A DNA stretch of 64,000 nucleotides, taken from assembly GCA_951406725.2 (NCBI GenBank), contig OX597814.1:68262001-68326000 (forward strand), written 5' to 3'. The position numbers and the translations under genes are program-made. A model generated the notes under the pieces. The model saw only the letters and a list, made by a program, of their open reading frames with translations. It made no database searches and was not told the DNA's origin. Positions 17,581 through 63,098 of this stretch are shown piece after piece. Position 1 is the stretch's first letter. Every line of letters begins with the position of its first letter. The stretch is from Octopus vulgaris. Lineage: Eukaryota.

Positions 17581-19108
17581 ACAAGAATGGATAAGTTTTT
17601 AGTAAAATTGTTTCATACAAACACAGGCTTTATTAAAAGTTGCAAATATTGCAGCAGATAAAAGTGTCCCGTACTCATCAGCTAAAACACATATGAGTTC
17701 TCCAGACATCTTAGTGGGTGAGGCTACACTCATGAAGTATTGGAGATAATTTCATTAAAAGCAGATTTAGGTTGTAAACAGACTTCCGAAGTTCTTTAAT
17801 GATGATGCACAGTCTTATCACAGGTTTTTAAAAAAAGCTTATTAGCTTCACAGAGAAGGTGAATTAATCCGTAGTGTAGATGTAAAATTCCAGAGATATG
17901 AGGAGGAATTTCATACTCACAGACGATGAATTTATCCATGGTTAATCCACAATGAGGTGGGTATAATTTCATGCTATATGATAAGGTATTTGTCACATTA
18001 CTGTTCTCTTCACAAGACTGCTATGTTATGACTTCTAAAGGCTGAAGGAATTTTTGTGGAGCAAAGTAAAGAAAAGAAAGGAAAGAGAAGAAAAGAGACA
18101 AGGAAAAGGAAAAAAAGAAAAAGAAAAAAGAAAAAGGAAAAGAAAAAAGAAAAAAGGGGAGAAGAAAAGAAAAAAGAAAAAGAAAAAATAGAAAAAAAGA
18201 AAAAGAAAAAAAAGGGGAAGAAGGGAGAAAAAAAAACGCCCACATAGAGTATACTGTGACAACTGAGAGGGAAAGGGGCCGCAGGTGACGCCTGGCTGGC
18301 TTCGAATTTGCAGGAATCTAAGAACTATAAGGAGAATATTATTTTTGACCAGTAAACAGCTATTTATTGCTAACCTGACCTAGCTGAAAGCAGATATGAG
18401 AATCTAAAGAGATAACAAGGTCAGGGATAGAGGGGTCAAAGGCTATCATCAAAAGGAAATACATTAAGAGAAAAAAATAAGTGCAATCCTAACAAGAGGT
18501 CATTTAAATTTATTTATTTATTTATTATTTACTGTTACTGTCTTAAATTGTTGCCGTTACTATCTATACATTGACAGACTACAGGTCAATACTTAGAAGT
18601 TAGTTTACAAGGTGTGAGGGAATTGCCTATTTATATTGAAATTTCTCATACTACTTTCAAAGGAGTAGCATTACTTATTTAATTTTGTAATAGAATTATG
18701 AAGCCTTAGTAACTTATTTTATTAAAGTTGTGTTACCTAAATTAGATTACATTAAAAATTAAAAATTAAAAATTAAATTTAAAATTAAATAAATAAAACT
18801 TCATTCAAGCAACGTACAAGTACTATTTGTTTTCTTTTGCTCAAAATCAGGTGCAGTTATAAAGAAAAAGATAACTGTAGTGTGAGAGCTCGCAGTTATC
18901 TACTTAAAAAATTAAAGTTATGCTATACTAGTAAAAAACAAGTTATATCTATCTATCTATCTATCTTGTTACGATTATTCTATACGGTTATTCATTTAAA
19001 ATATTTTAGAGTCTTCAATTTTGCGTGGACACAAAATTGACCTAATTCAATATGGTTATTTAACAAACCCCTATTTTTTCTATGCTTTAGAATTTCAAAC
19101 GTCTCCAT
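17581..19108 (-). repeat. Inverted copy (pseudo-LTR) of the 3' end of the adjacent PLE
   Basis: Reverse complement of 21006-22484 with few substitutions and indels; unpaired sequence continues about 135 bp further left to (TA)n. Confidence 0.95.
17595..17688 (-). ncRNA. Hammerhead ribozyme motif of the Hydra-like PLE
   Basis: GTTTTAG-CTGATGA-GTACGGGACAC...GTGTTTGTAT-GAAA-CAATTT-TA-CTAAAAAC. Confidence 0.7.
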
Positions 19109-22100
19109 CATATCTAGAGAAGAAATCAATATTGTGCTACTAGCTAGAAAAACATTTATAGAATTTGAAGATAAGTTATGGACTAGAGCAGATACACCTA
19201 ATTGTTTTGACATACCCATGGGTTCCAGTGACTCGGCTGAGGTGACTAACCTAGTAGGCGCGTATCTATTAAAATGCATAAGTAAGGACATCCCTGAACT
19301 ACAAGGTGGTTTATATAGGGATGATGCTCTGTTTGTTATCCCTAGTAATAATAAATCTAGTATAGAAAGGATTAGAAAGAAAATTAATAAGTTCTTTAAG
19401 GATTTCAACCTCAGCATAACGTATGAACCTGGCACTAAAATAGTTAACTTCATAGATATTACGTTAGACCTTAACTCCAAGCTGCATTACCCATTTAGAA
19501 AAGAAGGCGAAATCACGAGATACGTAAATAAATTATCCAATCATCCCCCAAATATAATTGAATCTTTAGTCAGAAATATTTCATTAAGAATTTCAAAATT
19601 ATCATCCAATAAGGATATATTTAACTCCCATTCTGAGCATTATAATGCGGCGTTATCTAAGGCAGGATACAACCAAAAGATTACATTTATTGATAAGGAG
19701 AACTTACATATTCCTAATAAAGAAGTTATTAGTAATCACGTAAGCAGCAATATAGACCAGGCCCGAAATAGAAGTAGAAGTAGATTCACGGTAACCGCAA
19801 ATCTAGCGTAAAAGCCCAATAATACAAATAGAAGCATAGACCAAAGCATAGGTAACTCGGATAAAATCAAATTAGATAAATCAAAGATGCATACAAATAA
19901 TGGTAATAAATACAATGACTCTGGTGAGAAGATTAGTAATAATTCAACGAACCCTGATTCTAATTCAAGGAAATTTAATAAGAAAGATATAATATGGCTG
20001 AATATTCCTTTCAACTGTGCGATTAAATCGGATATACAGAGCAAATTCAAAGTAATTCTAGAAAGAAATTTCCCAATCTCTCATAGATATCATAGAATTA
20101 TTTCTAAAAAAACAGTTAGGATTTCTTATTCAACCCTCCCAAATATGTCCACTTTAATAGCTAAGATTAATAATAACAACATTAAGCTAGCCAGGAAAGA
20201 TAAAAATAAAAATAATAATACCAACATGAATACCAATAACAATTATAATAATACTACCAACAATAAACGCAACAATAGTAACTATCAAAACATGGGTAGA
20301 ATCAGTAACCACAGAATGACTAATAATAATATTAATAGTAATAGGAGTAATAATAATATTGATATTAATAGAAGTAATAATGTTAATAATAGAAGTAAGG
20401 CTAATAGAGAAAATACAGAGAGTGAAAATATCAGTGATATCTATAACAACAATATACATTCAGATAAAAATACTAGCAATAATAGTAACAATACCAATAA
20501 TGTAAATAATCATGGTAGGACTTTAGACCTAAAGGATGGAGCAGAAGGATCAATAAATAATAACAATGCTTTAGATAACAGCACCAACTATAAAAATAAT
20601 AATAATAATAAAGATAATTATACTCATGATAATCAAAATAACAGGAACATAAGACATCTATCCATAAATAATCCAACATCTGAAGTTGTTCCTCCTGCGT
20701 GTAAGTGTAGAATTAAGTCAAAATGCCCGGCACCTGGTCTATGCGGGGTAAATAACGTAATCTATAAATGTACCATATCTACTGAGAATAACAAATTTTT
20801 TTACATTGGTTGTACGATAAATTTTAGAGATAGAGTTAGAAACCACGTCTCATCTTTTAAATTACGTCATAAAGCTGGTACCACCACGCTTTCAAATAAG
20901 ATCTGGGAACTCAAAAATAATAATAGGAATTATAACCTTAAGTGGGAAATAGTTAGAAGAGCAATGCCGTATAAAAATAACAGGGTAGGTTGCCAACTCT
21001 GCTCCATGGAGACGTTTGAAATTCTAAAGCATAGAAAAAATAGGGGTTTGTTAAATAACCATATTGAATTAGGTCAAGTTTGTGTCCACGCAAAATTGAA
21101 GACTCTAAAATATTTTAAATGAATAACCGTATAGAATAATCGTAACAAGATAGATAGATAGATAGATATAACTTGTTTTTTACTAGTATAGCATAACTTT
21201 AATTTTTTAAGTAGATAACTGCGAGCTCTCACACTACAGTTATCTTTTTCTTTATAACTGCACCTGATTTTGAGCAAAAGAAAACAAATAGTACTTGTAC
21301 GTTGCTTGAATGAAGTTTTATTTATTTAATTTTAAATTTAATTTTTAATTTTTAATTTTTAATGTAATCTAATTTAGGTAACACAACTTTAATAAAATAA
21401 GTTACTAAGGCTTCATAATTCTATTACAAAATTAAATAAGTAATGCTACTCCCTTGAAAGTAGTATGAGAAATTTCAATATAAATAGGCAATTCCCTCAC
21501 ACCTTGTAAACTAACTTCTAAGTATTGACCTGTAGTCTGTCAATGTATAGATAGTAACGGCAACAATTTAAGACAGTAACAGTAATAAATAAATAAATAA
21601 ATAAATTTAAATGACCTCTTGTTAGGATTGCACTTATTTTTTTCTCTTAATGTATTTCCTTTTGATGATAGCCTTTGACCCCTCTATCCCTGACCTTGTT
21701 ATCTCTTTAGATTCTCATATCTGCTTTCAGCTACGTCAGGTTGGCAATAAATAGCTGTTTACTGGTCAAAAATAATATTCTCCTTATAGTTCTTAGATTC
21801 TTGCAAATTCGAAGCCAGCCAGGCGTCACCTGTGACCCCTTTCCCTCTCAGTTGTCACAGTATACGCTATGTGGGCGTTTCTTCTTTTCTCCCTTCTTCC
21901 CCTTTTTTCTTTTTTTCTTTTTCTTTTTTCTCTTCTTCTCCCCTTTTTTCTTTTTTCTTTTGCTTTTTCTTTTTTCTTTTTCTTTTTTTCCTTTTCCTTG
22001 TCTCTTTTCTTCTCTTTCCTTTCTTTTCTTTTCTTTGCTCCACAAAAATTCCTTCAGCCTTTAGAAATCATAACATAGCAGTCTTGTGAAGAGAACAGTA

Positions 22101-24556: not shown

Positions 24557-24670
24557 TTAAAAATTGTATAATACAGCAGCATTTTCGAACTTCATTTTTT
24601 ACAAATATATACCTACTCGTATACGAGCTAATCCTATTATAAATATCATATCACGTACGAGCTCCCGAAA

Positions 24671-26071
24671 ATGCCTGCTAAAAAAGACACCAACGACATC
24701 TCCTCAATAAATGAAGAGATACTCAAAGAATTGAAAAGCATAAATTCAAACCTAACAGCAGTGTTAAACAAACTCAACTTAACACCTCGACCTTCTACAC
24801 AAACTAACGAGGAAACCGAATCGAATAAAACACCCTCCGAAATATTCGAGAAAGTTGAAAATCTATGCGATACAATGACGACATTCTTCACAAACTTTAC
24901 GAAACAAGAGCAACAAAAAGAAGGAACACATGAGACGAACCGAGCAACTTCAACATTACAAATAAAGAACCAAGTCCTCCCCCAATGGAGAACACTACAG
25001 CGAAACAGAAAATTTGCTTTTTGGAAAATGATACAAAATCAGAATAAAGCAGAGATTTACCAAAAATGGCTAGACTCAACACCCCTAGTCATACCCCGTA
25101 AATTACAAATCAAGCCCATCTCGGAAGAACCAGAAGAACAAAGAAAACATAGAGAAAAAATGTCATTAGAAAAAATGAAGATGGAAATAGAACTACTTAA
25201 GCTGAGAGCTAAAACGAATGAAGAAAAAGTAAAAACCATAGACGAGGAAATCAACGAAGAAGTCATCAAACTAATAGACGACATCAATACTGAAACATTA
25301 CCAGCACTATGGAATGAAGAATGTGAAAAAGAGGAACTTAAGTCCCTCCAACGATGGGAAAAGAGCGCCATCTGGTTTCTAGATTATGAAACCAACTTCA
25401 AAAATGAACACATATCCAACAACCCCTTCATAAAATTAAGCAAATCAAAACCAAATACCAACAGAACGGAACAACCACCAAGAAATCCTACCACACTCTA
25501 CACCAGAAAAGTACACCTAAAACACACCCCACACTACCTACACCAACCCCAAAACACCTACAGAGGCCCACCACACCAGTTCGAAAATAGACATACCAAC
25601 AGAGCAGAACAACCACCAAGAAATACAAACACACTCTACACCAGAAAAATGCATTTAAAACGCACCCCACACTACCTACACCAACCCCAAAACACTTATA
25701 GGGTCCCACCACACCATTCCACGAACCTAAGAGCCACAACATACAATACTATAAAATACAACCCACATAACCAAACCAAAACGCTACTACCAAACATCCA
25801 CCCCAGGAACCAACCATACAACCATAACAAACAACAAGTGCACTACGGAGGAAACAACTACCAACACAATATACCTGAGGAACTAAGACGGAACACTAGG
25901 TTCAACAACAGACTCCAGAACAGAGCACCACAAACTCACTCTGACAATTATAACAACATGAGACAGATAAATAATAGCTTTGAACATAACTACACCAACC
26001 ATTTTTTAGACCTTACACACAGGAACAGGGACACACGATGGCAAAGGACAAACAAAAGAAACCTCAGGTAA
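24671..26071 (+). CDS. PLE ORF1: coiled-coil N-terminal domain, 46-aa tandem duplication, N/H/Q/P-rich tail
   Basis: 466-aa open frame inside the pseudo-LTRs; E/K-rich heptad segment; TNRxEQPPRN...HQPQNTYR repeated with a 138-bp period. Confidence 0.8.
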   Translation: MPAKKDTNDISSINEEILKELKSINSNLTAVLNKLNLTPRPSTQTNEETESNKTPSEIFEKVENLCDTMTTFFTNFTKQEQQKEGTHETNRATSTLQIKNQVLPQWRTLQRNRKFAFWKMIQNQNKAEIYQKWLDSTPLVIPRKLQIKPISEEPEEQRKHREKMSLEKMKMEIELLKLRAKTNEEKVKTIDEEINEEVIKLIDDINTETLPALWNEECEKEELKSLQRWEKSAIWFLDYETNFKNEHISNNPFIKLSKSKPNTNRTEQPPRNPTTLYTRKVHLKHTPHYLHQPQNTYRGPPHQFENRHTNRAEQPPRNTNTLYTRKMHLKRTPHYLHQPQNTYRVPPHHSTNLRATTYNTIKYNPHNQTKTLLPNIHPRNQPYNHNKQQVHYGGNNYQHNIPEELRRNTRFNNRLQNRAPQTHSDNYNNMRQINNSFEHNYTNHFLDLTHRNRDTRWQRTNKRNLR

Positions 26072-28331
26072 TTAAGATAATCAATCTCTCAAACAAAGAA
26101 CTTACACCTAACGAAATAAGCATACTCTCCAAAGGACTTAAATTTACACCCACCCCACAACGTTCTAATTACTATGAAATGAAAGATGATATTTCGGAAT
26201 TTTGCAGAAAACTAAGACTCACCGAGGCATTTCAAGACAAACAAATAGAGGAGGACTCAATAGCTAGAAACAAGAGCAATTACACCCCCACCAAGGGTAA
26301 GAATAAAGCCTTAGACCGCTATTGTGACTACATAACTAATTTCCCGTTTCAATTCATCAAGAAACAAAAACACAGCCCTAACTTCAACAAAAGAGAATGG
26401 AACGACCCCATCAAACTAAGAGAAGACAAAGCAATAACAATTAAGGAGGCAGATAAGGGCAACGCGATAGTAATAATGAATACAAACGATTATAAAAATT
26501 TAGTGCTATCCCTATTAAGAGATGAAACGTATTATGAAAGGGCCCAACAGTATAACCAGCAAAAAATAATGCATAACCTTAGGACATTAATCAACACATA
26601 CCAAGAAGGACTCACGAACAAGGAGTATGAATACATCACTAACTTCAAATGCAAATCGAGTTTGTTCTATGGTATCCCTAAGGTACACAAAAGCCAAACA
26701 TTAGAGAAACGTGCAAAACATCCACCGACACACTCATCAAAATCCCTTCACCAAATGATCTTAAACTAAGACCGATAATAGCAGGGCCAGTATGTGAAAC
26801 TCACCGCCTCAGCAATTTCTTAGACACACTTCTTAAACCTTTCCTAAAACGCATCAAAAGCTACGTAAGAGACGATATAGATATGCTCAACCACCTCCCT
26901 AAAACAGTCAATGAGAAAACCCTTCTAGTATCATTCGACGTAGTTAATCTTTATTCTAACATCCCTCACAACCTAGGAATAGAAGTGATCACCTTCTGGC
27001 TGAATAACTACCCCTTTGAACTCCCAACTCGCATAAACAAAGACCTTATAATAGAAGGACTTAGATTCATTTTAGAGAACAATTATTTTATTTTTGACAA
27101 TGATTTCTACAGGCAAAGATCGGGAACAGCGATGGGCACGCGTACTGCACCATCTTTTGCCAACCTAGTGATGGGATACCTCGAGAAAATACTATACCGG
27201 ATGACACTCGAGAAATATGGAAACACCTTCGCCACCTATATCCATAACAACTGGAAAAAATACCTCGATGACTGTTTCATCATCTGGGACAAAGGTATAG
27301 AGAAACTCGAGGAATTTAAAATACTATTAAATGGAATAAATGACAATATACAATTCACGATGGACCACAACGAAAAAGAATTACCATTTTTAGACATCCT
27401 CATTAAGAAAACCGGCAACAAAATAGAGACAGATATCTACTATAAACCAACAGACTCTAAACAGTACCTACCCTTTGATTCATGCCACCCACGACACACT
27501 AGAATGAATGTCCCTTTTTGTTTAGCTAGAAGGATTTGCACCATAATATCAGACACAAACACCCGACACACACGTCTCCAGGAACTTAGAACCACACTCA
27601 CAAATAGAAACTATCCACAGCCCCTAATAGACAGTGCAATCCAACGGGTACTTAAATTAAGTATAGAAGACCTGAGACAAACAAAACCAAAAAAGAAAGA
27701 ACAATTAAAGACCCTTCCCTACATCTCTACACATAACCCACTCAACAATGAGGCCTTCAACACCATACTACAAAGCACAGCCCTACTAAAGGGAGACCCA
27801 AAGATGAACCGGATCCTCGAAACACACACCATCATTAAAAGTAAACGGCAACCAAAATCCTTGAAAAGGATTTTAACCCAAGCTACACTGCACTCAACAT
27901 CAACCACAAAACCAGCAGTTAGAAAATGTGGAAGGCCAACTGCGGAATCTGTCATCTTCGAAGAAGGATCAGAATTTATACTGGAACAAGGCCACCAGTT
28001 CACCATTAGAGCAAACTTCACCTGCGCATCAGAAAACTTAATTTACGTCATAACATGCGCAGGCTGCAATAGGCAGTATATAGGCCATACAAAAAATAGC
28101 TTACGTAACAGGATGGCGGTGCATAAATCACAAATTAGAAACCCTGATTACCGCAAAATACCGGTCAGCGGACACATAGATAGATGTGCTGGAAATGTAA
28201 ATCCGAAATTTACAACTAACCCGCTCTATAAATTCAGTGACAACGCAACCTTCACACAACGCCAAAATAAAGAACTATATTTCATAAAAAAATTTAGACC
28301 AAGTTTAAACACCCTGGGCCAAGAATACTAA
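26038..28331 (+). pseudogene. PLE RT + GIY-YIG ORF2, frameshifted near 26700 and by compensating indels near 27937-27960
   Basis: NLS...LSKGLKFTP, ADKGN, FYGIPKVHK / LRPIIAG, SFDVVNLYSNIP, GTAMG, YLDD, LIYVITC..C..QYIG. Confidence 0.92.
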
Positions 28332-32737: not shown

Positions 32738-33203
32738 ATAGAAATGGTAAGACAACAAAAGAATAAAAGAGACCTCGATATTATGTAAATAGAGGAATTT
32801 ATCTGTAAATATATGTGGCATTTATTCGGTAGCTATGATAAAACTCCGAGTTTCGGATGTCGGGGCGGAAACCCACGCCGCCATCTCTTCAGTTACCCGG
32901 CCATCGAAAAATGCTATGAAAATGACCGTTAAACAGAGGGAAATTACTGTGTGATTGACCGTTATTAAGACAAGAGAGCTTTTAGAATGACCAGTAAGTG
33001 ACGAGAGAGAGTAAAGGTAAGGGAGTAAAAATGTTCATAGTATTCGCGTAAGTTCGCATGTCCATACCTACACATGTGCGCCAACACACCCACGCACATG
33101 CGCCTATTAGTATATACTCATCCACCCTCACTTGAAACACACATGCTCACCCACACTTTCGCCAAATATATATGTATATATACCCGCATACAAGTTTACA
33201 CAC

Positions 33204-34709
33204 ACGCTGGAAAAAGCAAAAGTTAACCAGGAAAAGTCGGTCGGCTTGCAACTCGGCAACTGGAGGGGCAAGTCGATGAATTCGAACAGCGTCGTAGGAC
33301 GCTGGAAGGAGGGCCCTATTAAGTTGCTAGGAATCTGGGTTGGCCCAGATCTCCAGATTGAAAAGAACTGGGCTGAGGTCTCGAGCAGAGTGGCCAGCAT
33401 AGTCAGGACCTGGTCTTGGCGGTGGCTATCCTTGAAAGGGAGGGAGGAGGTGGCCAATGTGTTTATCGCATCGGCCATCATATCGTGTTCCGTCTTTCCG
33501 TCGTGCCTTGCCCAGATTCGTGGTTAAACAGGTTGGAGAGGCAGAAATTTCGCATTTTATGGAAGAACTCCGCTCCACTTGTAAGACATTCTATCTGCTG
33601 TCAAAAACCGTTAAAGGGTGGGTTAGGGATGTCTTGGCTATTTATGCGCAAGCATGCGCTGAGATTGAGGCATCTCTGGCTCTACCTGGATGGTGAACGA
33701 GTGTGGTCTCTGTTTACTAGACGGATGTTTCCCAGTTTTACTAGTTTTGGCGGTAGAGAAGACTGATTTCGCCGAAGATCGAAGTTGAGTAACTGGTATA
33801 CGGAGTGCCGCAAGGCACTTCTCAATTTCCGCAGCTCGGGCAATGCCAGCGGTTTCGGTACCAGCGCAGCTTTTTATAGTAGGTTGGTTGAAGCTGGAAA
33901 TGACGATGCCCTGGGAAGGACCTTGGGCCTCGATGATAATCGAAGAACATTCGGGCCGAAGACACTAGATAATTTCCAAAAGTCTTTGGCCTGGCAGTAT
34001 TACCGAGAAGCCCTACCCGTTCGGGATAAACTCACGTGACACGGCCACCCCGGGCCGACGACATGTCCAAGATGCGGGCGGAGTGTGGAAACCGTCCTGC
34101 ATGCTATTGTGCAGTGTCCGGGTATTTCACAAGTCTGGGTTTATGCAGAACACCTGTTGCCAGATGGGAGAAGAGTACAGCTATCGGCTGAGTCAATTTT
34201 AAAAATTAACCCACCGGATTTCCTGAAGGAATGAAGTAATTGTTTTCTCGTGGTAGTAGCAATTGCGAGAGAGGTGATATGGAAGTCGAGAATGAAAGGT
34301 ATCGTGACAAACACCGGCGTCTCTGGCCTCGCCCTCATGAAAATGTTCACTTTTTATTTGAAAAGGAAGGTGGGGCTGGAAAGGAGGTGCTTGTCAGAGA
34401 GTGAGTTTAAAAAACAATGGACGCGTGTAGCACGCATGTTGGGAGTGAAAGGTCCTGCGTGATCATGCTAGTGTGACTAACAGTAGGTCGGTGTTAAAGA
34501 CAGGGTTCGCGGGGTCGGAGCATACCTGTTTCGAACACCTCATCTTGTAAATTATTGTTTGTAATTTACTGTTTGTAATTTATTGAATTGTTACTCATTC
34601 GATTTCATTATACTCGTAAAATTTTATTATATCATCCGTTTGTATGTGACCCCGGTCATGTTGTGTTGTTCCCTATATGATGGCTCTTTATGGGTAATAA
34701 GACGAAAAA
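33204..34709 (+). mobile_element. 5'-truncated L1/Tx1 ORF2 3' part (late RT plus zinc finger), pseudogene
   Basis: KVNQEKS, IKLLGIW, LSLKGR, GGLG, CPRC...ETVLHAIVQC; T-rich 3' UTR ending in a small hairpin and AATAA. Confidence 0.85.
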
Positions 34710-35437
34710 CAGATCCCAAAGTCTAACCAGTTCGTGCGAGTTCTTGGTATTTTTTGTCTGTTGAATTGGTTTTGTGAAATTTTAATTGTTGTGTGCTGCT
34801 TTGCAGTTGTTCGTGCTTTCTCTCATTGAGAGTTGGCAATGGCTAACAAAAGAAATTTGTTTTACTCAGACCTTGGCGGGTCTGAGTTGTCAACATCTGA
34901 GGATGAACTATTAAGGGTTATTGATGATATGGGCGAGGAATTGGAAGGAAGAAAGAGGGCGTTCGCGGACGTCGCCCGAGAATCGGATGACAATGTTGAA
35001 ATATAATTGCACAAATTCAAGAAATTATTAAGTCGGGACGGTTACAATGCGCAAGTAACCCCACCCAGCATGAAACAACAAAAATAATACAAACAAGAAC
35101 GGTGATGTACAAGACCTACTCGGTTAAGAAAGATAAAATTGACCACATGGCAACAGAGCAAATAGAGAAAGTGCTGAGGCCAGTCTGGCAAGAAATAACA
35201 TACCTTGGCAGAGGGGCTAAATTTGGAGAAGTCGAAATCAGATATAAAAACGAAAATACGGCGAAAAACTATGCGGCAACCCCTCTAAGGAATGAAGAGC
35301 TAGTACTTCTACCCGCGTAAATGGGACAGAGAGCGTCTCGGGTAATTGTAGAAGGAATTCAACAGGAGATAGATGTGGCCGGGATAGCGGCGGTTGTCTT
35401 GGTTGAAACCGATGACAAAATAGCGGGGCAGGTTCGT
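34710..35437 (+). mobile_element. 5' UTR and ORF1 start of an L1/Tx1-like element, directly downstream of the preceding element
   Basis: KTYS...ITYLGRGAKFG.V.I.Y...A..PL....LLPA.MG resembles the ORF1s at 37055 and 54788. Confidence 0.65.
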
Positions 35438-36373: not shown

Positions 36374-36420
<47 letters not shown>

Positions 36421-38552
36421 TTGACTGCGGCCATGCTGGAGCACCGCCTTTGGGCGAACAAATCGACAAAAGAGACCGATAGAATAAGTGCTAGGCTTCC
36501 AAAGAGTAAGTCCTAGATGACACTTGCCCAAAGTGCTACGCAGTGAGACTGAACCTGAATCCATGTAGTTGGTAAGCAAGCAACTTACCAACGCTTGGCA
36601 TGCGTTGCTCAGTGTTTACTTTGCACTGCTAGGAGTCACGTCGCTGTACACCAACGTCGTGAATTGTTGAACAAGTTTAGCACAACTACCAGGCAAGACA
36701 TTTGTTATTTTGGTATTCAGTGGGGGCTTGTTGCTCGTGTTTATATATTTTTGTCGAACAATAAATCTCCACTGAGTTCCACACATTTATCTGCCTGTAG
36801 TTGGGTTTAAAGTCTCAGGGCCGAGAAGTATGTTTGGGGGGGCGTATCCCTCCGCCTATAATTGTGCTTATTTTTTACTATTTTTGTGTGACTGTTTTGT
36901 GTCCTTACCAAGAGGATTACCGAGTTGGCCGTGAGTACCAGGACAGCCAGAATAATTTGCTGTGTTTTGGAACTGCTTCTTGTCTTCATCCTTCCTTCCT
37001 ACATTTTTTTTTAACTCTGTGAAATTTTGTTTTTGTGAACGTTTTCCCCCCAAAATGGCAAAAAAGACAAACAACACTACGTTGGAGTGGGAGATTGTCC
37101 CACCCAAACAGTGGATGAAAGACTTTGAAGAGAGGACGGTGGTACTCTAAGTCGCTCAACACCATCGCCCTCTTTCAAAGGACTCAAATTGAAAAAGAGT
37201 TGCCAGAGTATTTGCCAACTATTAAATTCATCTCCAGGTGGTTGCTATTTGACACCCCTGAGGAAGCTCGAAAATTTGCAAGCCAGCCCTTAGAGGGCAA
37301 AGAGATTTTTTTTCTTCCCACGTATGGTGGGAAGAAGTTGACAAGAGCTTGGGTCTTTGGGTGCCACCCGTGATAGAAACCGAGTGGGTAGAGGACACTA
37401 TCCGCCGGGGGCTGGGTGGCAGCGGATCCAAGCTGGTTAATGTTAAAATTTTGCCGGCAACTGATTGGGTTGGGTCAAAAGCTGTTTTGACCCTGTGGAC
37501 CCAATCAGCAAAGAATTTGGTTTTTCCAGAATTCTTTTGAAAATGGTCAGTTGCAGGTACCCGGTGATCCTTGAGGGACGCCCCCACCAAGTGTCACCTG
37601 TACCTGGAACCTGGCCACATCAAAAAGAACTGTTCCCAAGACCAGAGTATGGTCCTAGAATAGTTGGTTGTGGAAGAGCCGCCGCTCCTCCTCCGGAGGG
37701 AGAGATGGAGATAGTCGAGGAGGTAGAGACCTCCCCGGAAAAAAGGGGAAAAGGAAGAAGGTGGGCAACAATGATTGCTCACCGAAGGACCCTAAAGCTG
37801 CGGGAGGGAAGGGTGATCCTCCAGTTAAAGCGAAGGAACCACCCACTCCCGTATCAAAGAGAAAAAAAAAGAAAATGAATAGGACAGTGTCGGCGGATTG
37901 CAGTACACTGCCTGCATGTCCCGAAACCTCGTCGGTGGGAATTGTGCCACCGACGGATGAAACAGTGACCCCTTCCAGTGTAATAAATTAGGAATTTGTT
38001 ATCTCTTTTCTTAAGGGAGGGGCTGTAGAGAACTTTGAGAGGAATTTTGAAGGTCGGGAATAGGCGGTCCTAACCTGCATTGATAACTTGGATTGGCCAC
38101 TGCTGGTGGATGCGGAGGTCATAGAGGAAAATTATTTCCATAGGGTGATGGATTCCTTTACTAAGGAAGAATATAATTATCACTTTTGGGACCCAGGCTT
38201 GCAACTTCAGGATTGCCTGAAGGGGAGGCAGAGTAAGAGGTCTTAGCGCCTCGATTAGAACTTGAAGATTGGTAAGAGGCTTAGCGCCTAAAGTTGAATA
38301 TTTTCTGAACTTTTTTGATTGATAAGAGGCTCAACGACTCAATTTGTAATCATTGTAAGAGGTTAAACACCTCATTTGTGTTTTTTTTAAAGAACAATGT
38401 TATCGGGAAGTAATAATCGGCGGGCGTTGGCTGCTTCCCCGACCGACCATCTCTTTTTCATTCCATCATCATCAAGCTTCATCTGTATTATGCCCTTATG
38501 GCAAATGTAATGAAATAAAGCAAGCTACCAAGCACACAGCCATTCCTGCGCC
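36421..38552 (-). mobile_element. Deleted SINE-A split by an ORF1-only element
   Basis: Body at 36421-36590; head resumes at 38518-38552. Confidence 0.8.
36591..38517 (+). mobile_element. ORF1-only (HAL1-like) L1/Tx1 non-autonomous retroelement
   Basis: Frameshifted ORF1 MAKK...LEWEIVPPKQW...YPVILEGRP..CHLYLEPGHIKKNC; no APE or RT; TSD 36574-36590 / 38518-38534 (13/17). Confidence 0.8.
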
Positions 38553-38569
38553 AAATATATATGTATGTG

Positions 38570-39102: not shown

Positions 39103-39480
39103 TTACTCTTTACTTGTGTCAGTTATTTAACTGTGGCCATGCTGGAGCACCGCCTTTATTCGAGCAACTCGACCTCAGAACTTATTCTTTGTAAGTCTAG
39201 TACTTATTCTATCGGTCTCTTTTGCCGAACCGCTAAGTTACGGAAACGTAAACACATCAGCATCGGATGTCAAGCGATGTTGGGGGAACAAACACGGACA
39301 CACAAACATATACATATATACATATATACAACGGACTTCTTTCAATTCCCGTCTACCAAATCCACTCACAAGGCTTTGGTCGGCCAGAGGCTATAGTAGA
39401 CACCTACCCAAGGTGACACGCAGTGGGACTGAACCCGGAACCATGTGGTTGGTAAGCAAGCTACTTACCACACAGCCACT
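39103..39480 (-). mobile_element. SINE-A
   Basis: Near full-length reverse-complement copy. Confidence 0.88.
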
Positions 39481-49078: not shown

Positions 49079-49314
49079 GCATTATTATCTAATCGGACAG
49101 GGAATTGTAGCTTTATGACCTGTTCACTCTAGCGAGCTTCCAGCAGTAGTTCGCTCCGGCCCGCGATGTACTGAAAATAAATGACAACTAGTCACTGATC
49201 TTGCAACAAGCAAATTAGCTAATAACGACATTTCTGTAAGAGATGAAAGCAGTAACTATACTAACAAATAATGTTTATCGCCTCTTCAACATGGTTGTTC
49301 TGTAGAAACCGACG

Positions 49315-50841
49315 TTACTCAAGGCCTCGATGTCAACAAGGGTCACGGCTCTGACGGCATGCACCCACAGGTTATCAAAGCTTCGGTCATCTGCGAACCT
49401 TTAACACTTCTATTCAATATGTCATTGACGACGGGTGTTATACCTTCGAACTGGAGAACAGCGATAATCTGCCCGATTTTCAAGAAAGGGAGCCGCGAAG
49501 ACCCGCTTAACTACCGACCGGTTTCCCTTACTTCAATAATCAGCAAGATGTTCGAAACCATCCTTAAGAAAATATGTTGCTCCACCTCCAAAACACAGCC
49601 TCTATCTCTGATTCCCAACACGGCTTCGTGCCGAAGAATTCATGCTTGACCAACTTACTGGTAATGGAAGAATTGGTGACGCGTATCCCGGATGATGGTG
49701 ATGCTGTTGACATCGTTTTATTGGACTTTGCCAAAGCTTTTAACTCGGTTAACCACCGCCTATTACTTGTCAAACTTCAAGCATATAGTTTCCATCCGGA
49801 TATTGTACAATAGGTTGGTGCCTTCCTCTCAGATCGCTCCTTTCAAGTCCAAGTTAATGGTTCGCTGTCCGACGTCTCCAGTGCGAGCAGTGGCGGGCCT
49901 CAAGGTTCAGTGCTTGGGCCCTTATTGTTTTTAGTCTTCATAAATGACTTTCCCGACGAACTCACGCAACACACCCTTCTATTTGCCGATGATGTCAAAC
50001 TGGTCACTCCTCGCGGTGATATAGATGATCTTCGTCGATGCCTCCACCAAGTTTGGAGATGGTCTAACGAATGGGACCTGTGTCTGAAGGTGTCAAAGTG
50101 CTGTCACCTGCCTGTTGGCTCCTCTCCTGCAACTCAACTTGATTTCGAGCCGGGTCGTCTGTTGCTGGAGAGGACCGACCAGGTAAAGAACCTGGGTATT
50201 TTGGTGGATTCTTCCTTTTCGCCTTCGGCCCAGTGCGTCCATGCTGCCAACAAAACACGCGGAGTTCTGTTTTTGATTCGACGGTCATTCTGAATGTCAC
50301 GCTGGTGAGACCCATATTGGAGTACGGGATTCAAGCCTCTTCTCCTTATCTCCTCAAAGACATACATCATCTCGAAAGAGTCCAGAAGCTGGCTACCCGC
50401 ATGGTTCTTGGTCTCAAGCATTTGTCTTATGAAGAAAGGCTGAAGACGCTCGACCTTTATTCTCTAGAAAAACGACGACGCTGTGGTGATTTCATTCTCG
50501 CTCACAACATCATAAGCGGAAAGTGTAACCTCTCGAAAGAGCTGTTCTTCACTCCTGCTCCAGAGCGTCGGCTGCGAGGTCACTCCGAAAAGCTCTATCT
50601 GCGACGATTTCATCCCAATCGAAGGAGAGGGGCTTTCTCCGTCCGGGTTGCGGATCTGTGGAATAAGCTGCCGGACGAGATAGTGAAGATGCCGACGACC
50701 GCTCGGTTCAAAGTCTCTCTTGACCAGAAATGGCCTGAACTCTTTGCATGAACACGCTCCCTGTACATAACTCCATGTCCCCCTACATGGCCTTGCTTTT
50801 TGCTCCTTGAGCCCCAAAATTAACTTAACTTAACTTAACTT
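49315..50841 (+). mobile_element. 5'-truncated CR1-clade LINE (RT pseudogene) with a (TAACT)n tail
   Basis: WRTAIICPIFKKG..NYRPVSLTS, QHGF..SCLTNLL, DFAKAF, QGSVLGP, FADD, VRPILEY, WNKLP. Confidence 0.92.
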
Positions 50842-50993: not shown

Positions 50994-52268
50994 CGAGGGA
51001 CGTTCAATAAGTAATGCCCCTGACCCACTTGCAGTTGTTTGCATGTGCAATCATTTATATCTCTATAGAGAAAGTGACAAATTACAGCTCTGAACTAATT
51101 GTGGTTTCTGATTTACAGGTGTTTGAACTGAGTCAAGTGTGAAATGGAGCCTGTTGAGTGTCGAGCAGTGATCCGGTTTTTGTATTTGAAAGGACGCACA
51201 CCACGGGGGACTTTTGCTGAAATGAAAGTAACTTATGGTGATGATGCCCCATCATATGACCTTGTAAAACGCTGGGATCGTGAATTCAAACATGGTCGGA
51301 ACTCTGTGGAAACAGCTCCCAGATCTGGTCGCCCCCTTCTGCCATTGATGAGGCATCTGTCCGTCAAGTTGAGGCTGCCATTTTGGAAGATCGACGCATA
51401 ATTATTCGCCAAATAGCCCATGAGGTCAAGATTAGTACCGGGTCTGTGGAAACTATCATTCATGACCATTTGCATATGCAAAAGGTGTCTGCCAGATGGA
51501 TTCCCAGGTTGCTCACGCCTTTCCAGAAGCAACAACGCATCGAGTGCTCGAGGATGAATTTGGAGATGTGCCAAGAAGATGAGTCAAAATTTTTCAAAAG
51601 ACTGATTACACAGGATGAAACCTGGGTCCATCACGATGATCCAGAGACCAAAGCCCAGTCAATGCAGTGGAAGCACCATGACTCACCCCCTCCAAAGAAG
51701 GCAAGGGTGCAGCCCTCCGCTGGCAAGGTCATGCTCACAGTCTTCTGGGACCAGGACGGAGTAGTGATGATAGATTTCCTGGCAAAGGGTACCACAATTA
51801 CAGGAGCCTATTATGCTTCACTTTTGAGGAAATTAAGAGAAGTTATCAAAATCAAGAGGCGGGGCAAGATCAGCAAAGACATCCTCCTCCTGCAGGACAA
51901 CGCTCCGGTCCACAACTCGCTTGTCGCCATATCAGAAGCACAGGCGTATGGCTATGAACTCCTCCCCCATCCCCCCTATTTTCCTGACCTTGCACCCTCT
52001 GATTTTTACCTCTTCCCAGCCATGAAGTTGTTTTTGAAAGGAAAGCGTTTCCCAGATGATGCAGCCTTGATTTCTGAAGTCACGTTGAGGTTGGAGGACC
52101 AAGCTGAGTTCTTCTACAAAAACGGTCTCCAGAGCTGCATCAAACGATGATAGAAATGCGTAACTCTGGGTGGTTCCTATGTAGAAAAAGACTAATAACT
52201 GTGCCAAGTTTCGTTGCTCTACTGCTATAGGAAGTGGGTCAGGGGCATTACTTATTGAACGCCCCTCG
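50994..52268 (+). mobile_element. Full-length mariner (DD34D), 37-bp TIRs, TA TSD; transposase 51144 to about 52197 with one frameshift and late stops
   Basis: TIRs match with 1 mismatch; WIPRLL, QDETW, QDNAP, HPPYFPDLAPSDFYLF. Confidence 0.95.
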
Positions 52269-52802
52269 TAATTACTGATTTCATCTCCTATAGAGAATTT
52301 CTAACAAGTAAATTTGCTGATTCCAAGGTCAGTGACTGGTTTGTCACTTCTTTTCTATATATTGCGAGCTAGAGCGAACTACTGCTATGCTCGAGGATGA
52401 GCACAAATAATTCGAAACTGTACGGTCCGGTGGTCCAGGTTACTTCAGTGCATTCAGTTACAACTGGCCCTGTCCAACCTATTGTTACTACATGCGTTGT
52501 TATTATCAATATTATCATTACCATTACAATTACTATCATCATGATTGTTATTACTGCGATCATCACCATCACCACCGTTGCTGTTGTCATTCTTACTATC
52601 ATTTCTACCTATATTGTCCTCCACGTTAGTTTTAACATTAGCATTAATGTTTACTTCATTTCCATTGTTTCCTATGCCTTTATTACTAGTATTTCTCATA
52701 CCAACTCGACCTCCGTGCACACCATGTTTACAATCACCCTTCCCACTGTTGGCTCTGGTCCACTCGCTATCACAGTTACTATTTATATAGTATACTTTCT
52801 TT

Positions 52803-53023
52803 TATCTTTTACTTGTTTCAGTCATTTGACTGCGGCCATGCTGGAGCACCGCCTTTAATCGAGCAACTCGACCCCGGGACTTATTCTTTTGTAAGCCCAG
52901 TACTTATTCTATCGGTCTCTTTTACCGAACCGCTAAGTAAAGGGGTCATAAACACACCAGCATCGGTTGTCAAGCAATGCTAGGGGGACAAACACAGACA
53001 CACAAACACACATACATACATCT

Positions 53024-53063
<40 letters not shown>

Positions 53064-55285
53064 GACGGGCTTCTTTCAGTTTTCGTCTACCAAATCCACT
53101 CACAAGGCTTTGGTCGGCCCGAGGCTATAGTAGAAGACACTTGCCCAAGATGCGACGCAGTGGGACTGAACCCGGAACCATGTGGTTGGTAAACAAGCTA
53201 CTTTATTTCATAAATTTGTCATATAGACAGTACAAAGAGCTTTGCGGGCTGGACAAATACATTAATGAATGAAAATGAAATATAATGAATAAATGAGAGA
53301 CGAAATCCGCCGATTGGATTTTTCTCGAAAATATATTTTCTTTTTTTTTTTAAATCAATATGAGGTTTCGAATCTCTTGCAAGGGGGAGGCACTAAAACC
53401 TCTTACTGAACATGTTTTCTTTTTTTTTTCTTAAAGCACAAAATTGAGGTTATAAACCACTACAAAATAATCCAATAAGATGAGGTTTCAAACCCTGTAG
53501 CGAGGGTCTTTCACCTCGTACTCTTCGATATATCCATCGATATATTCATCATTATCTTCAATGCCGCTTGAGTTCCTGTATCCCGCCATTTCCCATGCCT
53601 CACTCATGTAGGACATGTAAGTCGTGTAAGGGCCACCCGGCCATATGCGACACTCCTCCCCAAATCCTGTAAGCCTTTCCCACAAGGAAAACCTTATGAC
53701 CTCCACAGCTATCTGCGGAGGCCATTCGGGATCCTGTGTGAAGGGCATATCTACTGTTTCTTTATGTTCTTCTACTATTTTTCCCACCTCCCCGCCCTTA
53801 TAGAAAAAGATAATTGATCATCTTTAAGGGTCGGGGTGGTTTCTTCCACCGTGGGTGGCACAACTTCGGGACATGCAGTCGGCACATCATCTCCCCGCTG
53901 AGATGACCCGTTCTTCTTCCTTCTTTTTTTTCTTTTCTTCCTGGTTTCAGGAGAGTGGAGCTCTTCCGCTTTGTCCGGAGACTCTACCCCGCCTTCCGAA
54001 GCCTTAGGTTCCTTCGGCGGGCAACTATTGTTGCCCGCCTTCTTCCTTTTTAATCCTTTTTGAGTTGAGGAGGCTGAAGACTTCTCGACCACATCCACCT
54101 CTCCCTTTGACCGGGTAGGGGAGGTGGCATATAGTGACTGTTCCAGGACCTTACCAACGTCCTGTGGGCAGTTCCTTTTAATGTGGCCTGGCTGCAGGCA
54201 CGAGTGACACTTTGGGGGATGTCCTTCAAGTATCACCGGATACCTGCAGCCAGCCATTTTCAAGAAATCTGGAAAAAAACAGATCTGTTGCGGCCGATGG
54301 GGTCCACAGGGTCAAAATCGCTTTTGACCCTTCCCAATCGACCGCCGGAAATACTCTTACATTTAAGAGCCTAGGCTCGCCATCTCCCAGTCCCCGTCGG
54401 ATGGTATCTTCAATCCAATCTGCTTCGGTGCCCGGGGGGAGCCCACAAATCCAGGCTCGTATTAATTTTCTTCCACAATATGACGGGAGAAACAGGATTT
54501 CCTTGCCTTCTAAAGGCTGACTCGCAAACTGGCGAGCCTTTTCCCCGTTGTCAAACAGCAACCATACGGTTGCATGTTTGACACCACGGGATATATATTT
54601 TACAGAGGACAAATGTTCTGTAAGTTCATTTTTATGACTTGTTTTGGAAAGACGGTGATGGAATTAAGAACTTTAGAATACGTTCTAAGTACCATCGTCT
54701 TCTCCTCCATATCTGTTAACCATTGCTTAGGCGGGTTAATTTCCCACTCTAAGACAGAGTTTTTCTTTTTAAGTTCCTTCTCTGCCATGTCAAAAAACAG
54801 TTCAAAAGTAGTTCAAAAGACAGTCTGCCAAAAAATTAAACCGAATAAAGATAAAACAAAATAAAGGGTACGGGAGGAAACTGCAATTAAAGTAATGAAA
54901 AGAACTAACCAAAATTTAGAAAGAAAGAAATAATAGAAGGGAAAAGTAAAAGAAAAATCTCACAAATAGCACAGACAGGGAATCCTTTGTATAATACTCC
55001 AAGGTAATCCAAGGTAATCCAAATGGCTTATTCTTATTTTTCTGGCGAGATACGCCCACTAGAATTCACAAGAAGAATTTTCAAAAAATTCTCAATTCAC
55101 CGTTACGGTGATGAGAACCCAGTATTTTGCTCGTTATAGCGAGCCATAATTGACAATTTTTCTTTTTGTTCTTTTTTTCTGTTCGCGAAGCCGAAACTCA
55201 CATCTGCTCACTGTAGCAGTCCAGACCAACTAGTGTTGCATTCTGGGTAAACAAGCTACTTACTACACAGCCATTCCTGCGTCTA
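52803..55285 (-). mobile_element. SINE-A split by an ORF1-only element
   Basis: Body at 52803-53203; head resumes at 55246-55285. Confidence 0.88.
53204..55245 (-). mobile_element. ORF1-only (HAL1-like) L1/Tx1 non-autonomous retroelement
   Basis: Frameshifted ORF1 54788 to about 53488 with CHSCLQPGHIKRNC zinc knuckle; no ORF2; perfect 16-bp TSD GGTAAACAAGCTACTT (53188-53203 / 55246-55261). Confidence 0.88.
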
Positions 55286-58518: not shown

Positions 58519-61500
58519 GATTTATACAGAAGGTGGGATATGTAGCGCTTTCTGGTGTACGTGGCAGAATGCACGAAACACAACTTCATCTATGTTGGTT
58601 ATACAACAGGACGATGAAACAAAAGGTTTAATAGCCACAGATTCGACGTCAGGCACAATAACAGTAGTTCGACAGAACTTGCCGAACATTTCATTTCAAA
58701 CGGCTGCAGTTTTGAAAAAGACTTAAAAGGGCATATTCTCAAAAGATATTCTGAGTCTACTTCATTTTCACTTCTCAGAATGCACAAGGAGAAATATGTT
58801 TGCGAGTTATTAACATCACGCCCTAGAGGAATGAATAAAATAACAGGAGAATATCATCAAATTTATACAAAACTGTTTGATTAAATATTCTTTTTCTTTC
58901 CTCTTTTTTTCTGTCTTTTTCTTTTCGTCTGTTATAAAATTGAAACTTAAAACTATTGATGTCATTCCATCAATGTGTGGACGCTGGTTGCTCTCGTTCA
59001 TAATTTTACATTTGAATTTCCATAATTTAAAATTTTTATCACTTCTTATTTTGAAGTCGACAAAGACAAACTTACTGTTGAAATATCGTTCAACCAATAA
59101 AATATCTATTTCAATCGAATCGCGCTCTTCGTCTTGACTGTTTACCTTTGTGAAGAGTTACGTCAATCCTTTTTAAAATATCAAAATCAAGTAGATTAAG
59201 ATGTTTGTTTTTATGGTACACAGAATAAGAATTGGATCATATATATGAAATTCTGGAAGTTACCAAAGCAGCCGGGTGTCTAAGGAAAATCGTAATGTAA
59301 ATTATAGCTTTTGCATTTTATTCCTTCTCACAGTTGGATTGTCAGCCCTGCTAGTTTCGCTAGACCCCAGCGTTGAACCTAATCCTGGGCCAATGGATTC
59401 TGTACCATTCAAATATGAATCAGAAATTGAGAAATCGACATTTCTATCAGTGAAAAAAACTTAATTGTTCTCGTGCTAAATCAAGAGCCATTTATCATTT
59501 CTAGAAACATGGAAGCAAGAAAAAGTTATACCGGACGGTCTTACATCAAATATACCACTATGTGCATCAAAGCCTGACGATTCATTGCTTCAAAAGTTTA
59601 AATTAATTGGTGAGAACAATTCATTTTACATGACGGAAGCTATTATTGAACACTATCGTTCTAAATTAATATTGCTTGGTGCAGACATTAAGGAGATTTC
59701 GAATGTCCTTGAAAAGTTTGAACTTTTCGAACCTGAAGACAAAAAAAAAGCTGATTTCCCATTCCCCTAAGCCACTGGTCAAGGGAACATTTTGGTTGAG
59801 AAAGTTTGCTTTGAAATATGAGGAGAACTCGTTTTTACTTTCGGGACAAATGTTATGTGATAAACTTATTGACGCCGGGTTGAAAATCATAGCGGAATCC
59901 AGAAATTCCAATACAACCAACCACTTTTTCACACATGGAATTTCTAACAGACAATCCTACCACACACTGTTCATTCACCACACCAGGAACAATCATTTTG
60001 CTTTGCCAAGCAATTTTTTCGGAGATGCTTATATTTATGACAGTTTGAAATTACCAGTTTCGCAGGAACTAATAGCACAAATAACAACGTATTCACCACA
60101 AACAAACATTATTGCTACAATTCAACAAGTTCATATAATTAATCCCCGAGTTGGCGCATATGATTGTGGCCTTTTTGCCCTGGTGTATGCATTTGAATTT
60201 GTCATTGGAAACGCTCCAGAGAAGTTTTTATTTGATCAGTCAAAAATGCGAGCACATTTAAGATTTTGCCTCGAAAACAATAAATTTGTTCCTTTTCTGA
60301 AAGTAAAGGTTTTTCAAATGCCTACAAAAACCACAGAAGTCACTCACTTTCCATCACCCACCCAGGAATGGATTACCCCTAGAAAGACGACTAAAATTTA
60401 TAACTTCTCACATGAACATTCAGAACAAATATTATACCCAATGTTTTAAGTGAAGATTTCGAGCAAAGCCCAAAAAGGTGTCAGGAATCTAATGACTGAA
60501 AACCATTTGCTCGAGAGAAAACATCACACTAGAGAAGTCGGTCATAAATTTATCTAAACTAAAACTTTCGCCCGACGATGTCTCAGTCCTGGAGCTTGGA
60601 CTGAGTTTCTGCCCAAGCCCTAAGAATTTCGACAAGAATAAACTAGCCCAAGGGCTATCACTTTTTTTTTGAAAAATTGTTAATGAGGAGTCAAAAAACC
60701 AATGCTTACTGAAAATATACATGATGATGATCGAATCTGGCATAATCAGATTGAAAAGAACCCCAATGGCTATCCAGATAAAGTTCGGGATGGACGTTCA
60801 CAAGCCCTACTGGAATTTCTTGAATCTTGTCAGGCAAGCATTAAATAGCCTTAAAACAAGTGGAAAGAAGTTCTGGAAGAACCTTACAAATTCCCAACGT
60901 TATGCATTCCGACGATTCTATTGTTATCAAAATGGCAGGTAAAGGAGGCGCTATCGTAATTATGGACAAAAGTGAGTATATTTCATCTTGTGAAGAAGCT
61001 TTATATGACAAAACTTCATATAAAGAATTACCTGTCGCTTCAAACCCCAAATACAAAGGGGAAAGTGACAAAATAATTCTGCAAATGGAGGAAAACAATA
61101 TCATTAATAAGGCCGAATCCAGGATTTTACGGTCAGAAAGAAGAACACCTCTATTTTATGTACTCCCTAAAATACACAAAAAGTTCGAAAGATTTCTTCC
61201 AATGCGCTCAATTTGCAGCGGATATGAATGTTGCACGGCCAAAGTTTCGGAATGGCTGGATGGCTTTATATTCCCCGTCGCAAAAAGATCAAGTTCCTAT
61301 ATTCCGAATACTTTAGATTTTGTGTTTAAAATCAACAGCTGTTTTAAGCACCGAGGCCGTGTCGTGAACTGTTTCTTTGGTAACCATGGATGTTTCTTCC
61401 TTATATCCCAATATTTACCACAATGAAAGGGTAGAAACATGCATGGATGCCTTCGAAAAGCGGTCAAACAAAAGTGTTCCATCAAATTTCTCTGTAGATT

Positions 61501-63098
61501 ATTGAGAGTTGTGTTAGAAAGTAACACAATGAAGTTGAGACAAAGATTTTACCACCAGATGAAGGGTTGCTCCATGGGTACCCCCATAGCAGTTACTTTC
61601 ACTAATGTCTGGGAAGGATTACAGGATAGTTTAATAGACTTCTTTCATTTCTCTAAGTCCAACATAAAATTTACGTCTACTTTTTCAAAAACTAGCGTTG
61701 AAGTTTTAGACACAAAAGTTGTTTTCTGGAGGCAGAATAATGATAGAGTTATTTTTCAAGCCCTCACTTATCTCCACCGCCGTTCCGATCATTTACATCG
61801 TATTACTCGGTCAAATCCGAAATCCCTATTTTTGAGGATAAAACGGATTTGTAGTGACATAGGAGATTACTAGAAATATGCAAATGCACTTGTACATCAT
61901 TATGTCAAACGCGGTTACGGTGAATCACGATTAAAGGAAATAGCAAATGAAATAGCTAAGATTAGTAAAGATAGTCAAACCTTCACGCATAATTTTAGTA
62001 AACACAATACAATAGATGATATAATTCCTTTAGTGATTAACTGGCACCTAAATTTCGCTGGCATTTCAAAAGTGTTGCATGCAATTTACCAGTATGTGGC
62101 GAAAAAATATGCTCGTTTCAAAAAGATATTTCCTCAGCCGCCTATTGTAGTCTTTAGACGGAATAAGAATATAAGAGAATTATTGATCTCTATTTCTGAC
62201 TCCAAGAAAAGGAATATTGGAGTATCTGCACGATGTACCATGAAAAACAGCTGCAAGGGAGGTAAGCCCTCTTCATTGTGCAACCACATTTGTCAAGTGT
62301 ATTCCATCAGGAATCATAACAGAAATGTTGTGATTTATACAGTAGGTGGGACATGTGGAGATTCCCATTTGGTGTACGCGGTTGAGTGCACGAAACACAA
62401 CTCGATTTATGTTAGTTGTACAACAGAACAATCAAACAAAAGATTTAATGGGCATAGATTCGACTTCAGACAATAACATCAGTTCGACAGAGCTTGCTGA
62501 AAATTTCGTTTCAAACGGCTGCAATTTTGAAAAAGACTTAAAAGTGCATATTCTCAGAAAATTTTCTGAATCTGCTTCACTTTCACTTCTCAGAATGCAT
62601 GAGGAGAAATATGTTTGTGGGTTATTAACATCACGCCCTGGAGAAATTAATAAAAGAAAGAATATCCTCAAATATATACAAAACTGTTTGATTAAATATT
62701 CTTCATTTTCTCTATTTTCTTTCCTCCTTTTCTGTCTTTTTCTGTCTTTTTTTTTCTTTATTCTCTTTTCACCTGTTTAAAGACTGATGATGTCATTCCA
62801 TCAGTATGGCGGATACATACTTCACCTCCATCATCATTCATAATCTCACCATTGTGTCCTGCCCCAGTTACATCTTGATTGGGCTGGAGTGTCTCTTGTT
62901 TATTTTCTTGTGAAAGGGACGCGTTCTAATGGTCAGGTAGTTAGTCTGGAATTTTGAATTTTTATTTTGAACTTGAAAAAGACAGACTTACTGTTGAAAT
63001 ATCGTTCAACCAATGGAATATATCTATTACAATCGAATCGCGCTCTTCATCTTGACTGTTTACCTTTGTGAAGAGTTACGCCAATCCTTTTTAAAATA
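58519..63098 (+). mobile_element. Degenerate PLE with direct pseudo-LTRs (58519-59180 / 62332-63098) encoding 2A-like motif, Ulp1-like protease, RT and GIY-YIG
   Basis: VEPNPGP; FL..W....IPDGL; H..YDS..DCG; VINLS...LELGLSFCP; FYVLPKIHK; GCSMG (catalytic DD segment deleted); LVYAVEC..H..IYV; ends at (AAT)n. Confidence 0.85.
59830..60300 (+). pseudogene. Ulp1/C48-like cysteine protease domain within the PLE ORF
   Basis: IHHTRNNHF...YIYDSL...GAYDCGLFALVYA...FDQSKMRAHL..CLE...PF; His-Asp-Cys order of clan CE proteases. Confidence 0.75.

Follow-up and report, generated by a model that had tools for sequence, protein, structure and literature searches.

Two families of ORF1-only, putatively Tx1-related LINEs inserted at a palindrome in the head of an Octopus vulgaris SINE

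The two elements and their surroundings

The window analysed here is a stretch of 64,000 nucleotides from the genome of Octopus vulgaris (contig OX597814.1). It contains two elements that bear an ORF1 and no ORF2. The first of them (E1, 1927 bp) lies on the forward strand at 36590/1-38517 and is the more decayed one, the second (E2, 2042 bp) is an ORF1-only element of the non-LTR type on the reverse strand at 53204-55245. Two diverged elements of about 2 kb had been proposed for this region, and both are indeed present at these coordinates, homologous to each other and restricted to ORF1. Their ORF1 regions share 69.7% identity over 651 bases in the nucleotide alignment and the 3' ends can also be aligned (a score reached by 0/300 shuffles), but the 5' UTRs show no detectable relation (79/300 shuffles reach the score). 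Judged from these alignments E1 and E2 are members of two sister families that are about 70% alike in ORF1.

E2 begins with a 5' UTR of 457 bases (54789..55245, reverse strand) that presumably contains an internal promoter; the 5' end of the family may reach a few bases further. ORF1 follows at 53488..54788 (reverse strand) with about 430 codons and three frameshifts, and comprises an RRM-like region, a CCHC knuckle, a low-complexity basic region and an acidic C-terminus. Short AGAGG..CCTC hairpin units recur in the 3' UTR (53204..53487, reverse strand, 284 bases), which also has a terminal stem-loop with 4 bp and 5 nt. In E1 the ORF1 remnant (37055..38246, forward strand, 3' end approximate) is interrupted by several stops and frameshifts, and the 3' UTR (38230..38517, forward strand) shows four repeat units of the AGAGG..CCT(C) type, again with a terminal stem-loop. 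Four or five such hairpin-like units can be counted at 38230-38380 (forward strand) and at 53354-53505 (reverse strand), and several of them in both 3' UTRs have GTAAG before them, an echo of the target motif. Taken individually the 3' hairpins are not significant (z below -2 in one of nine). Read along the element strand, the 3' junction of either element is ...ATGAAATA followed by the AAG of the target, and neither 3' end has a poly(A) tail.

Several other mobile elements were recognised in the window by eye. Penelope-like reverse transcriptase and GIY-YIG-like reading frames are found at 15463-16503 (-), 19041-21122 (+), 24632-28331 (+) and 60845-62780 (+), and the copy at 24.6-28.3 kb has a long upstream reading frame. 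Just upstream of the last one a frame of 259 amino acids (59670-60449, +) contains a papain/Ulp1-like DCG motif. A Mariner-like transposase frame of 288 amino acids lies at 51284-52150 (+), and further LINE reverse transcriptase fragments of RTE-like and CR1/L2-like appearance occur at 5970-7265, 11372-11740 and 49272-50751 (+).

ORF1 protein and lack of ORF2

The only Pfam match of E2 ORF1 is zf-CCHC (E 1.5e-4). Downstream of the CCHC region of both elements none of the frames tested (11/11) gave a Pfam match, and reverse transcriptase and endonuclease are absent from E1 and E2. Among 1.84 billion proteins searched, nine matched ORF1. Of the best eight of these nine, three are named, all of them uncharacterised Octopus proteins (twice O. 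sinensis and once O. bimaculoides), and five are unnamed. The best match (P0001) shares 64% identity with the E2 piece and 48% with the ORF1 remnant of E1 over 218 columns. Longer or fused proteins bearing this ORF1 were not found in the protein searches, which counts as weak evidence.

Look-alikes in a protein atlas are CCHC and ZCCHC3-type RNA-binding domains (0.90-0.92). The AlphaFold model of ORF1 is poor overall (pLDDT 57.9), with residues from about 21 to 100 reaching 80-94. It has no fold match at E <= 0.001, and the best matches of this low-confidence model, which are RRM folds, stay below the threshold with E 4.9e-3. E2 thus combines an RRM-like region with a CCHC knuckle, and copies of the E1 and E2 families are dispersed and flanked by target duplications; the ORF1 of both elements is a LINE-type ORF1. 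One or more RRM domains together with a CCHC knuckle are typical of Tx1 and are found in other clades as well. The Tx1 label used here for E1 and E2 is a putative one that is drawn from ORF1 architecture.

HAL1 elements carry an ORF1 derived from the mammalian-type L1 ORF1p and have a poly(A) tail. HAL1 proper was considered as the identity of E1 and E2 and was rejected, because their ORF1 has no match to L1 ORF1 in Pfam or among PDB sequences (where nothing meaningful was matched) and because poly(A) is lacking at either 3' end.

The host SINE and the target duplications

A search for SINE heads revealed seven in the 64-kb window, five of them whole and two split by E1 and E2, respectively. 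By the A box and B box in its head the host repeat is a tRNA-type SINE. Both box patterns match in the copy at 39.4 kb, the B box is missed in the copy at 43.8 kb, and neither ARAGORN nor Rfam called a tRNA. Reportedly, tRNA-derived SINEs named OK, OR1 and OR2 were described from Octopus by Ohshima and Okada in 1994 (cited in PMC4758252); the host SINE resembles them by description only, being likewise abundant, of tRNA type, equipped with A and B boxes and found in Octopus. An empty target is preserved at 39450..39470 (reverse strand), where an intact head has the palindrome TGGTAAG-N7-CTTACCA between its A and B boxes. Other empty heads are located near 8096, 29593 and 43814, and the whole head near 49 kb is without the palindrome.

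E2 separates the 5' piece of its host head with the A-box region (55246..55283, reverse strand) from the rest of the SINE with B box, body, microsatellite and tail (52793..53203, reverse strand). Around E1 the corresponding parts are found at 38518..38553 and 36418..36589 (both reverse strand), the latter with an internal deletion and an inverted piece at 36463-36514. Since the host SINE is on the reverse strand at both loci, E2 is inserted in sense and E1 in antisense orientation, in agreement with the one sense and one antisense case that had been proposed.

The target duplication of E2 has 16 bp and its 3' copy (53188..53203, reverse strand) and 5' copy (55246..55261, reverse strand) are identical in 16/16 positions, whereby the last 3-5 bases may be element-derived. 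For E1 the 5' copy is found at 36574..36589 (forward strand) and a degenerate 3' copy with a 12/16 match at 38518..38533 (forward strand). On the element strand both duplications begin at the AAG of GT^AAG, which agrees with the original prediction. The latter also had both of them ending in TTACC(A), and here the two elements differ: the identical copies of E2 have this ending, but the right copy of E1 ends with ...CAAGC, not with TTACC, so that the end of the duplication is taken there from the SINE consensus. Furthermore, the flank upstream of the E2 site reads TAGT^AAG and not, as was stated earlier, TGGT^AAG. With these partial corrections the observation of two SINE-head insertions is real and largely confirmed. 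In the right copy of E1 (38518-38533) three clustered changes against the SINE consensus convert TTAC to CAAG; a template switch within the quasi-palindrome is a possible source of them.

Further copies in public contigs

Parts of E2 are present in 20 of the 24 public runs that were listed, and there is no RNA data set among the listed runs holding E2. Contigs were aligned to E2 for four of the 24 runs, one per organism label. In all four all 30 bins of E2 are covered by thousands of contigs, most of them below 99% identity, and the E2 family is therefore multicopy. Four of 32 listed contig pieces run from ORF1 across its stop into the 3' UTR and differ from E2 at 22-53 letters. As these diverged copies bridge ORF1 stop and 3' UTR, the lack of ORF2 is a trait of the family and not an accident of the E2 copy. 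Such ORF2-less copies elsewhere, together with the absence of any domain beyond CCHC in the 11 frames, support the non-autonomous ORF1-only structure that was suggested from the window. In the 5' UTR the summed contig depth, which is not to be read as copy number, does not reach that of the 3' half of ORF1, as would fit 5' truncation.

Junctions with the SINE are best represented in one of the runs (X2). Two rows with 24 and 16 contigs (agreement 0.58 and 0.56) lie on the sense SINE flank and the last 8-9 element bases, and these contigs run on into 3' ends of sister families that resemble the end of E1 and start at the same SINE base. They indicate many further insertions at this position, though short sister-family ends could be placed only when the flank matched the sense SINE, contigs may repeat a locus, and the rows are part of the best-supported 24 of 1,239 loose-end rows. 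Among these 24 rows neither an antisense junction nor a non-SINE flank at the element 3' end was found. The antisense class of insertions is represented by one case, E1.

A further row of the same run (five contigs, agreement 0.92) covers the 5' side. It leads from the SINE head to ...GCTTAC, continues with TTCCGG and then enters TTACC and the E2 5' UTR. The simplest reading of this one row suggests that TTACC is included in the family's own 5' end. If TTACC is possibly element-derived, the boundary of the duplication on the 5' side is uncertain: the duplication of E2 could then comprise 11 to 16 bases and the copies in the five contigs 13 to 15. Assuming the same 3' nick, each of these lengths would allow the second nick to be the mirror image of the first one, at CTT^AC, with a duplication of 13 bases.

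Some other contig ends were followed as well. One contig each in X1 and X2 joins 53201 to 55252 and links the two SINE flanks with unknown letters in between, which may represent a different insertion at this position. The loose ends at 53690 and 53744 belong to an abundant sister family (18-38 contigs per row) whose similarity to E2 is limited to about 55 bases in the C-terminal region of ORF1. A branch towards an ORF2 was considered for them and rejected, since the sequence, read by eye, goes on as the C-terminus of a sister ORF1. In metagenome contigs the SINE-element junction motif had no match, and 39 matches of the element 3' end motif were dismissed as chance (0/39 resembled SINE or ORF1 outside the roughly 30 bases at the pattern). 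The SINE head had no match in prokaryote genomes and viral contigs.

A lead to the autonomous partner class

A 5'-truncated 3' part of an ORF2 with its 3' UTR, which we take to be L1/Tx1-like, is located at 33195..34705 (forward strand). Its zf-RVT match (E 1.9e-4) is below the Pfam cut-off, the reverse transcriptase core is absent, and it is not inserted in a SINE. Relatives were not found in searches of protein and PDB sequences. Directly behind it, at 34706..35430 (forward strand), the ORF1 family of E1 and E2 has a third and distant member, of which the 5' part is present (E 6e-9). The ORF2 3' end runs straight into the 5' UTR and ORF1 of this distant relative, and the whole arrangement (33195-35430) looks like a tandem or nested insertion.

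Shortly before AATAA the 3' ends of E1, E2 and the ORF2 fragment can each be folded into a stem of 4 bp with a loop of 5 bases, none significant alone, and between E1 and E2 this terminal stem shows one compensatory pair. The likeness of the 3' UTRs to that of the ORF2 fragment is weak (1/300 shuffles for E2, 124/300 for E1). For the terminal 18-mers the likeness of the fragment to E1 and E2 is not significant, with 61/300 and 191/300 random segments scoring as well. No autonomous partner was identified, and the fragment gives a hint at the class of the partner only.

Target choice and alternative explanations

The probability of such insertions was estimated in the window with both elements removed, counting an insertion at the GT^AAG of a SINE head on the right strand. 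A single random insertion falls on such a site with P = 1.0-1.2e-4 and both do so with P = 1.0-1.4e-8; a lenient post-hoc model raises the latter to 5.8e-6. Targeting is favoured because two families only about 70% alike are inserted in opposite orientation at symmetric bases, which chance would produce with a probability between 1e-8 and 6e-6. The target preference that had been proposed earlier is thus supported by this estimate and by the additional junction contigs. A three-tier system had been suggested too, and of this a non-autonomous element inserting into a SINE site holds; the tiering was overstated, as the SINE serves as the place of insertion and there is no sign of its mobilisation by the same machinery, and a benefit of the SINE as a safe harbour is conjectural.

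We consider it probable (about 0.65) that E1 and E2 represent two non-autonomous ORF1-only families of the L1/Tx1 group, for which a borrowed ORF2p nicks the palindrome of the SINE head on either strand. A transcript starting from the 5' UTR would give rise to ORF1p, which would pack its own RNA, and ORF2p would be borrowed from an autonomous relative. The endonuclease would nick 5'-CTT^AC(C/T)A-3', the freed ...CTT-3' end could pair with the A-rich end of the RNA and prime reverse transcription, and a second nick on the other strand, 13-16 bp away, would yield the duplication. As the palindrome carries the site twice, either strand could be nicked first and insertions in both orientations would result. 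Most of the sites would be provided by the very abundant SINE.

The choice of the SINE head may have other reasons. A relaxed preference for a short motif of 5-6 bases, like that of mammalian L1, would make the head a minority target only. After removal of E1 and E2 from the window, SINE heads contain 8 of 11 TGGTAAG sites, 8 of 19 GGTAAG sites and 10 of 101 GTAAG sites, so two of two insertions in heads would be expected with P = 0.18 under a GGTAAG preference and 0.01 under a GTAAG preference. Since the motif is mostly found in SINE heads, a preference for 6 or 7 bases and targeting of the SINE are indistinguishable with two cases, and the E2 site already deviates from TGGT. According to the criterion of Kojima, a target-specific LINE has over 20% of its flanks in one repeat; here, both flanks in the window (2/2) are at the SINE site, and the 40 + 5 junction contigs are counts without a denominator, of which the 40 leave room for a relaxed motif. 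Against it speak the complete lack of non-SINE 3' flank rows among the best-supported 24 of 1,239 and the fact that both duplications terminate in the palindrome's second arm, and we regard a merely relaxed motif as rather unlikely. The position between A box and B box would also suit an ORF1p that acts, as proposed for TRE5-A, as a tether between the complex and Pol III factors sitting on the SINE head, with the endonuclease nicking the nearest acceptable site, and this would explain why ORF1 was retained. The passages of PMC5391098 on TRE5-A describe an ORF1 that binds TBP in vitro and an ORF1-only derivative, TRE5-A.2, but also a window of about 37-50 bp upstream of the gene as the place of insertion. 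E1 and E2 are inserted within the head, on opposite strands but in one and the same sequence, for which a read-out of the sequence suffices, which makes tethering improbable.

Another possibility is recognition of DNA structure, with the palindrome extruded as hairpin or cruciform and nicked near its base. The SINE head does fold as a DNA hairpin (-10.2 kcal/mol, z -2.0, 9/200 shuffles as good), but a short AT-rich stem with a loop of 5-7 bases forms a weak cruciform, and the cuts fall within the stem, in one and the same sequence that lies 4 bases deep in the arm. Structure as the signal is accordingly given little credence. Very improbable, finally, is the absence of any targeting, be it that both insertions are due to chance or that one composite of SINE and element was amplified. 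Such amplification could have inflated the number of sense-junction contigs, but these are heterogeneous, chance has a P of about 1e-8, and a single event cannot yield both E1 and E2 because they belong to different families and have opposite orientations.

Starting from the preferred reading, in which a borrowed ORF2p nicks the palindrome, a more specific scenario can be put forward as tentative and somewhat doubtful. An ORF1-only LINE radiation in octopuses would target the palindrome of the SINE head through one sequence-specific endonuclease that makes two identical nicks at CTT^AC, one on each strand, giving a 13-bp duplication and free orientation, and the apparent 16 bp would include ACC of the element's 5' end. 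To our knowledge, the cut of the second strand is poorly understood for LINEs of the endonuclease type. If the scenario is true, the SINE head is a natural symmetric substrate for a direct test of second-strand cleavage in target-primed reverse transcription, and a simple one if both nicks are in the same sequence. For the host repeat the consequence should be that insertion between A and B boxes disables the SINE copy.

Comparison with known systems

In O. vulgaris SINEs make up about 11.6% of the DNA, and 80 L1-Tx1 families, 13 of them recently active, are reported in PMC13282606; its main text does not contain the words “target” and “nested”. Neither the E1/E2 family nor a Tx1 element aimed at SINEs or reduced to ORF1 is described in the literature searched, which was mostly open-access and did not extend to Repbase; a prior annotation elsewhere is possible.

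ORF1-only non-autonomous LINEs are known from other clades, namely HAL1 (L1), HeT-A (Jockey) and Ag-Sponge (CR1), and the passages on such elements in PMC5786205 and PMC5753468 contain no Tx1-derived or mollusc case. E1 and E2 share with them the organisation of 5' UTR, ORF1 and 3' UTR, the lack of ORF2 and the multicopy status. In contrast with these elements they have an ORF1 of the RRM and CCHC type instead of the mammalian L1 ORF1, no poly(A) and a fixed target. A relation to Pol III units and an ORF1-only derivative are also seen in Dictyostelium, where TRE5-A.2 is mobilised in trans according to the respective passages of PMC5391098. TRE5-A, however, uses a window upstream of the gene, presumably by protein tethering, whereas E1 and E2 are inside the head at a defined sequence.

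Closest are LINEs of the Tx1 clade that are aimed at transposons. PMC4494074 describes Tx1L in Tx1D of Xenopus, Tx1-Mar and SINEU in Mariner-N4_AMi, and Tx1-9_AMi in Harbinger. As in these cases the octopus elements occupy a fixed site in an abundant repeat; there a non-autonomous passenger uses the same site, and the duplication of SINEU-3 has 16 letters like the 16 bp of E2 (PMC4494074). The octopus system, with its putative clade assignment, differs in that the target is the head of a tRNA-type SINE, the passenger encodes ORF1 and symmetric sites are used in both orientations. By analogy E1 and E2 may thus work like a target-specific passenger of the Tx1 type, distinguished by its ORF1-only form, its SINE-head target and its mirror-image sites, and they would add the SINE head as target and an ORF1-only passenger to the site-specific LINE systems.
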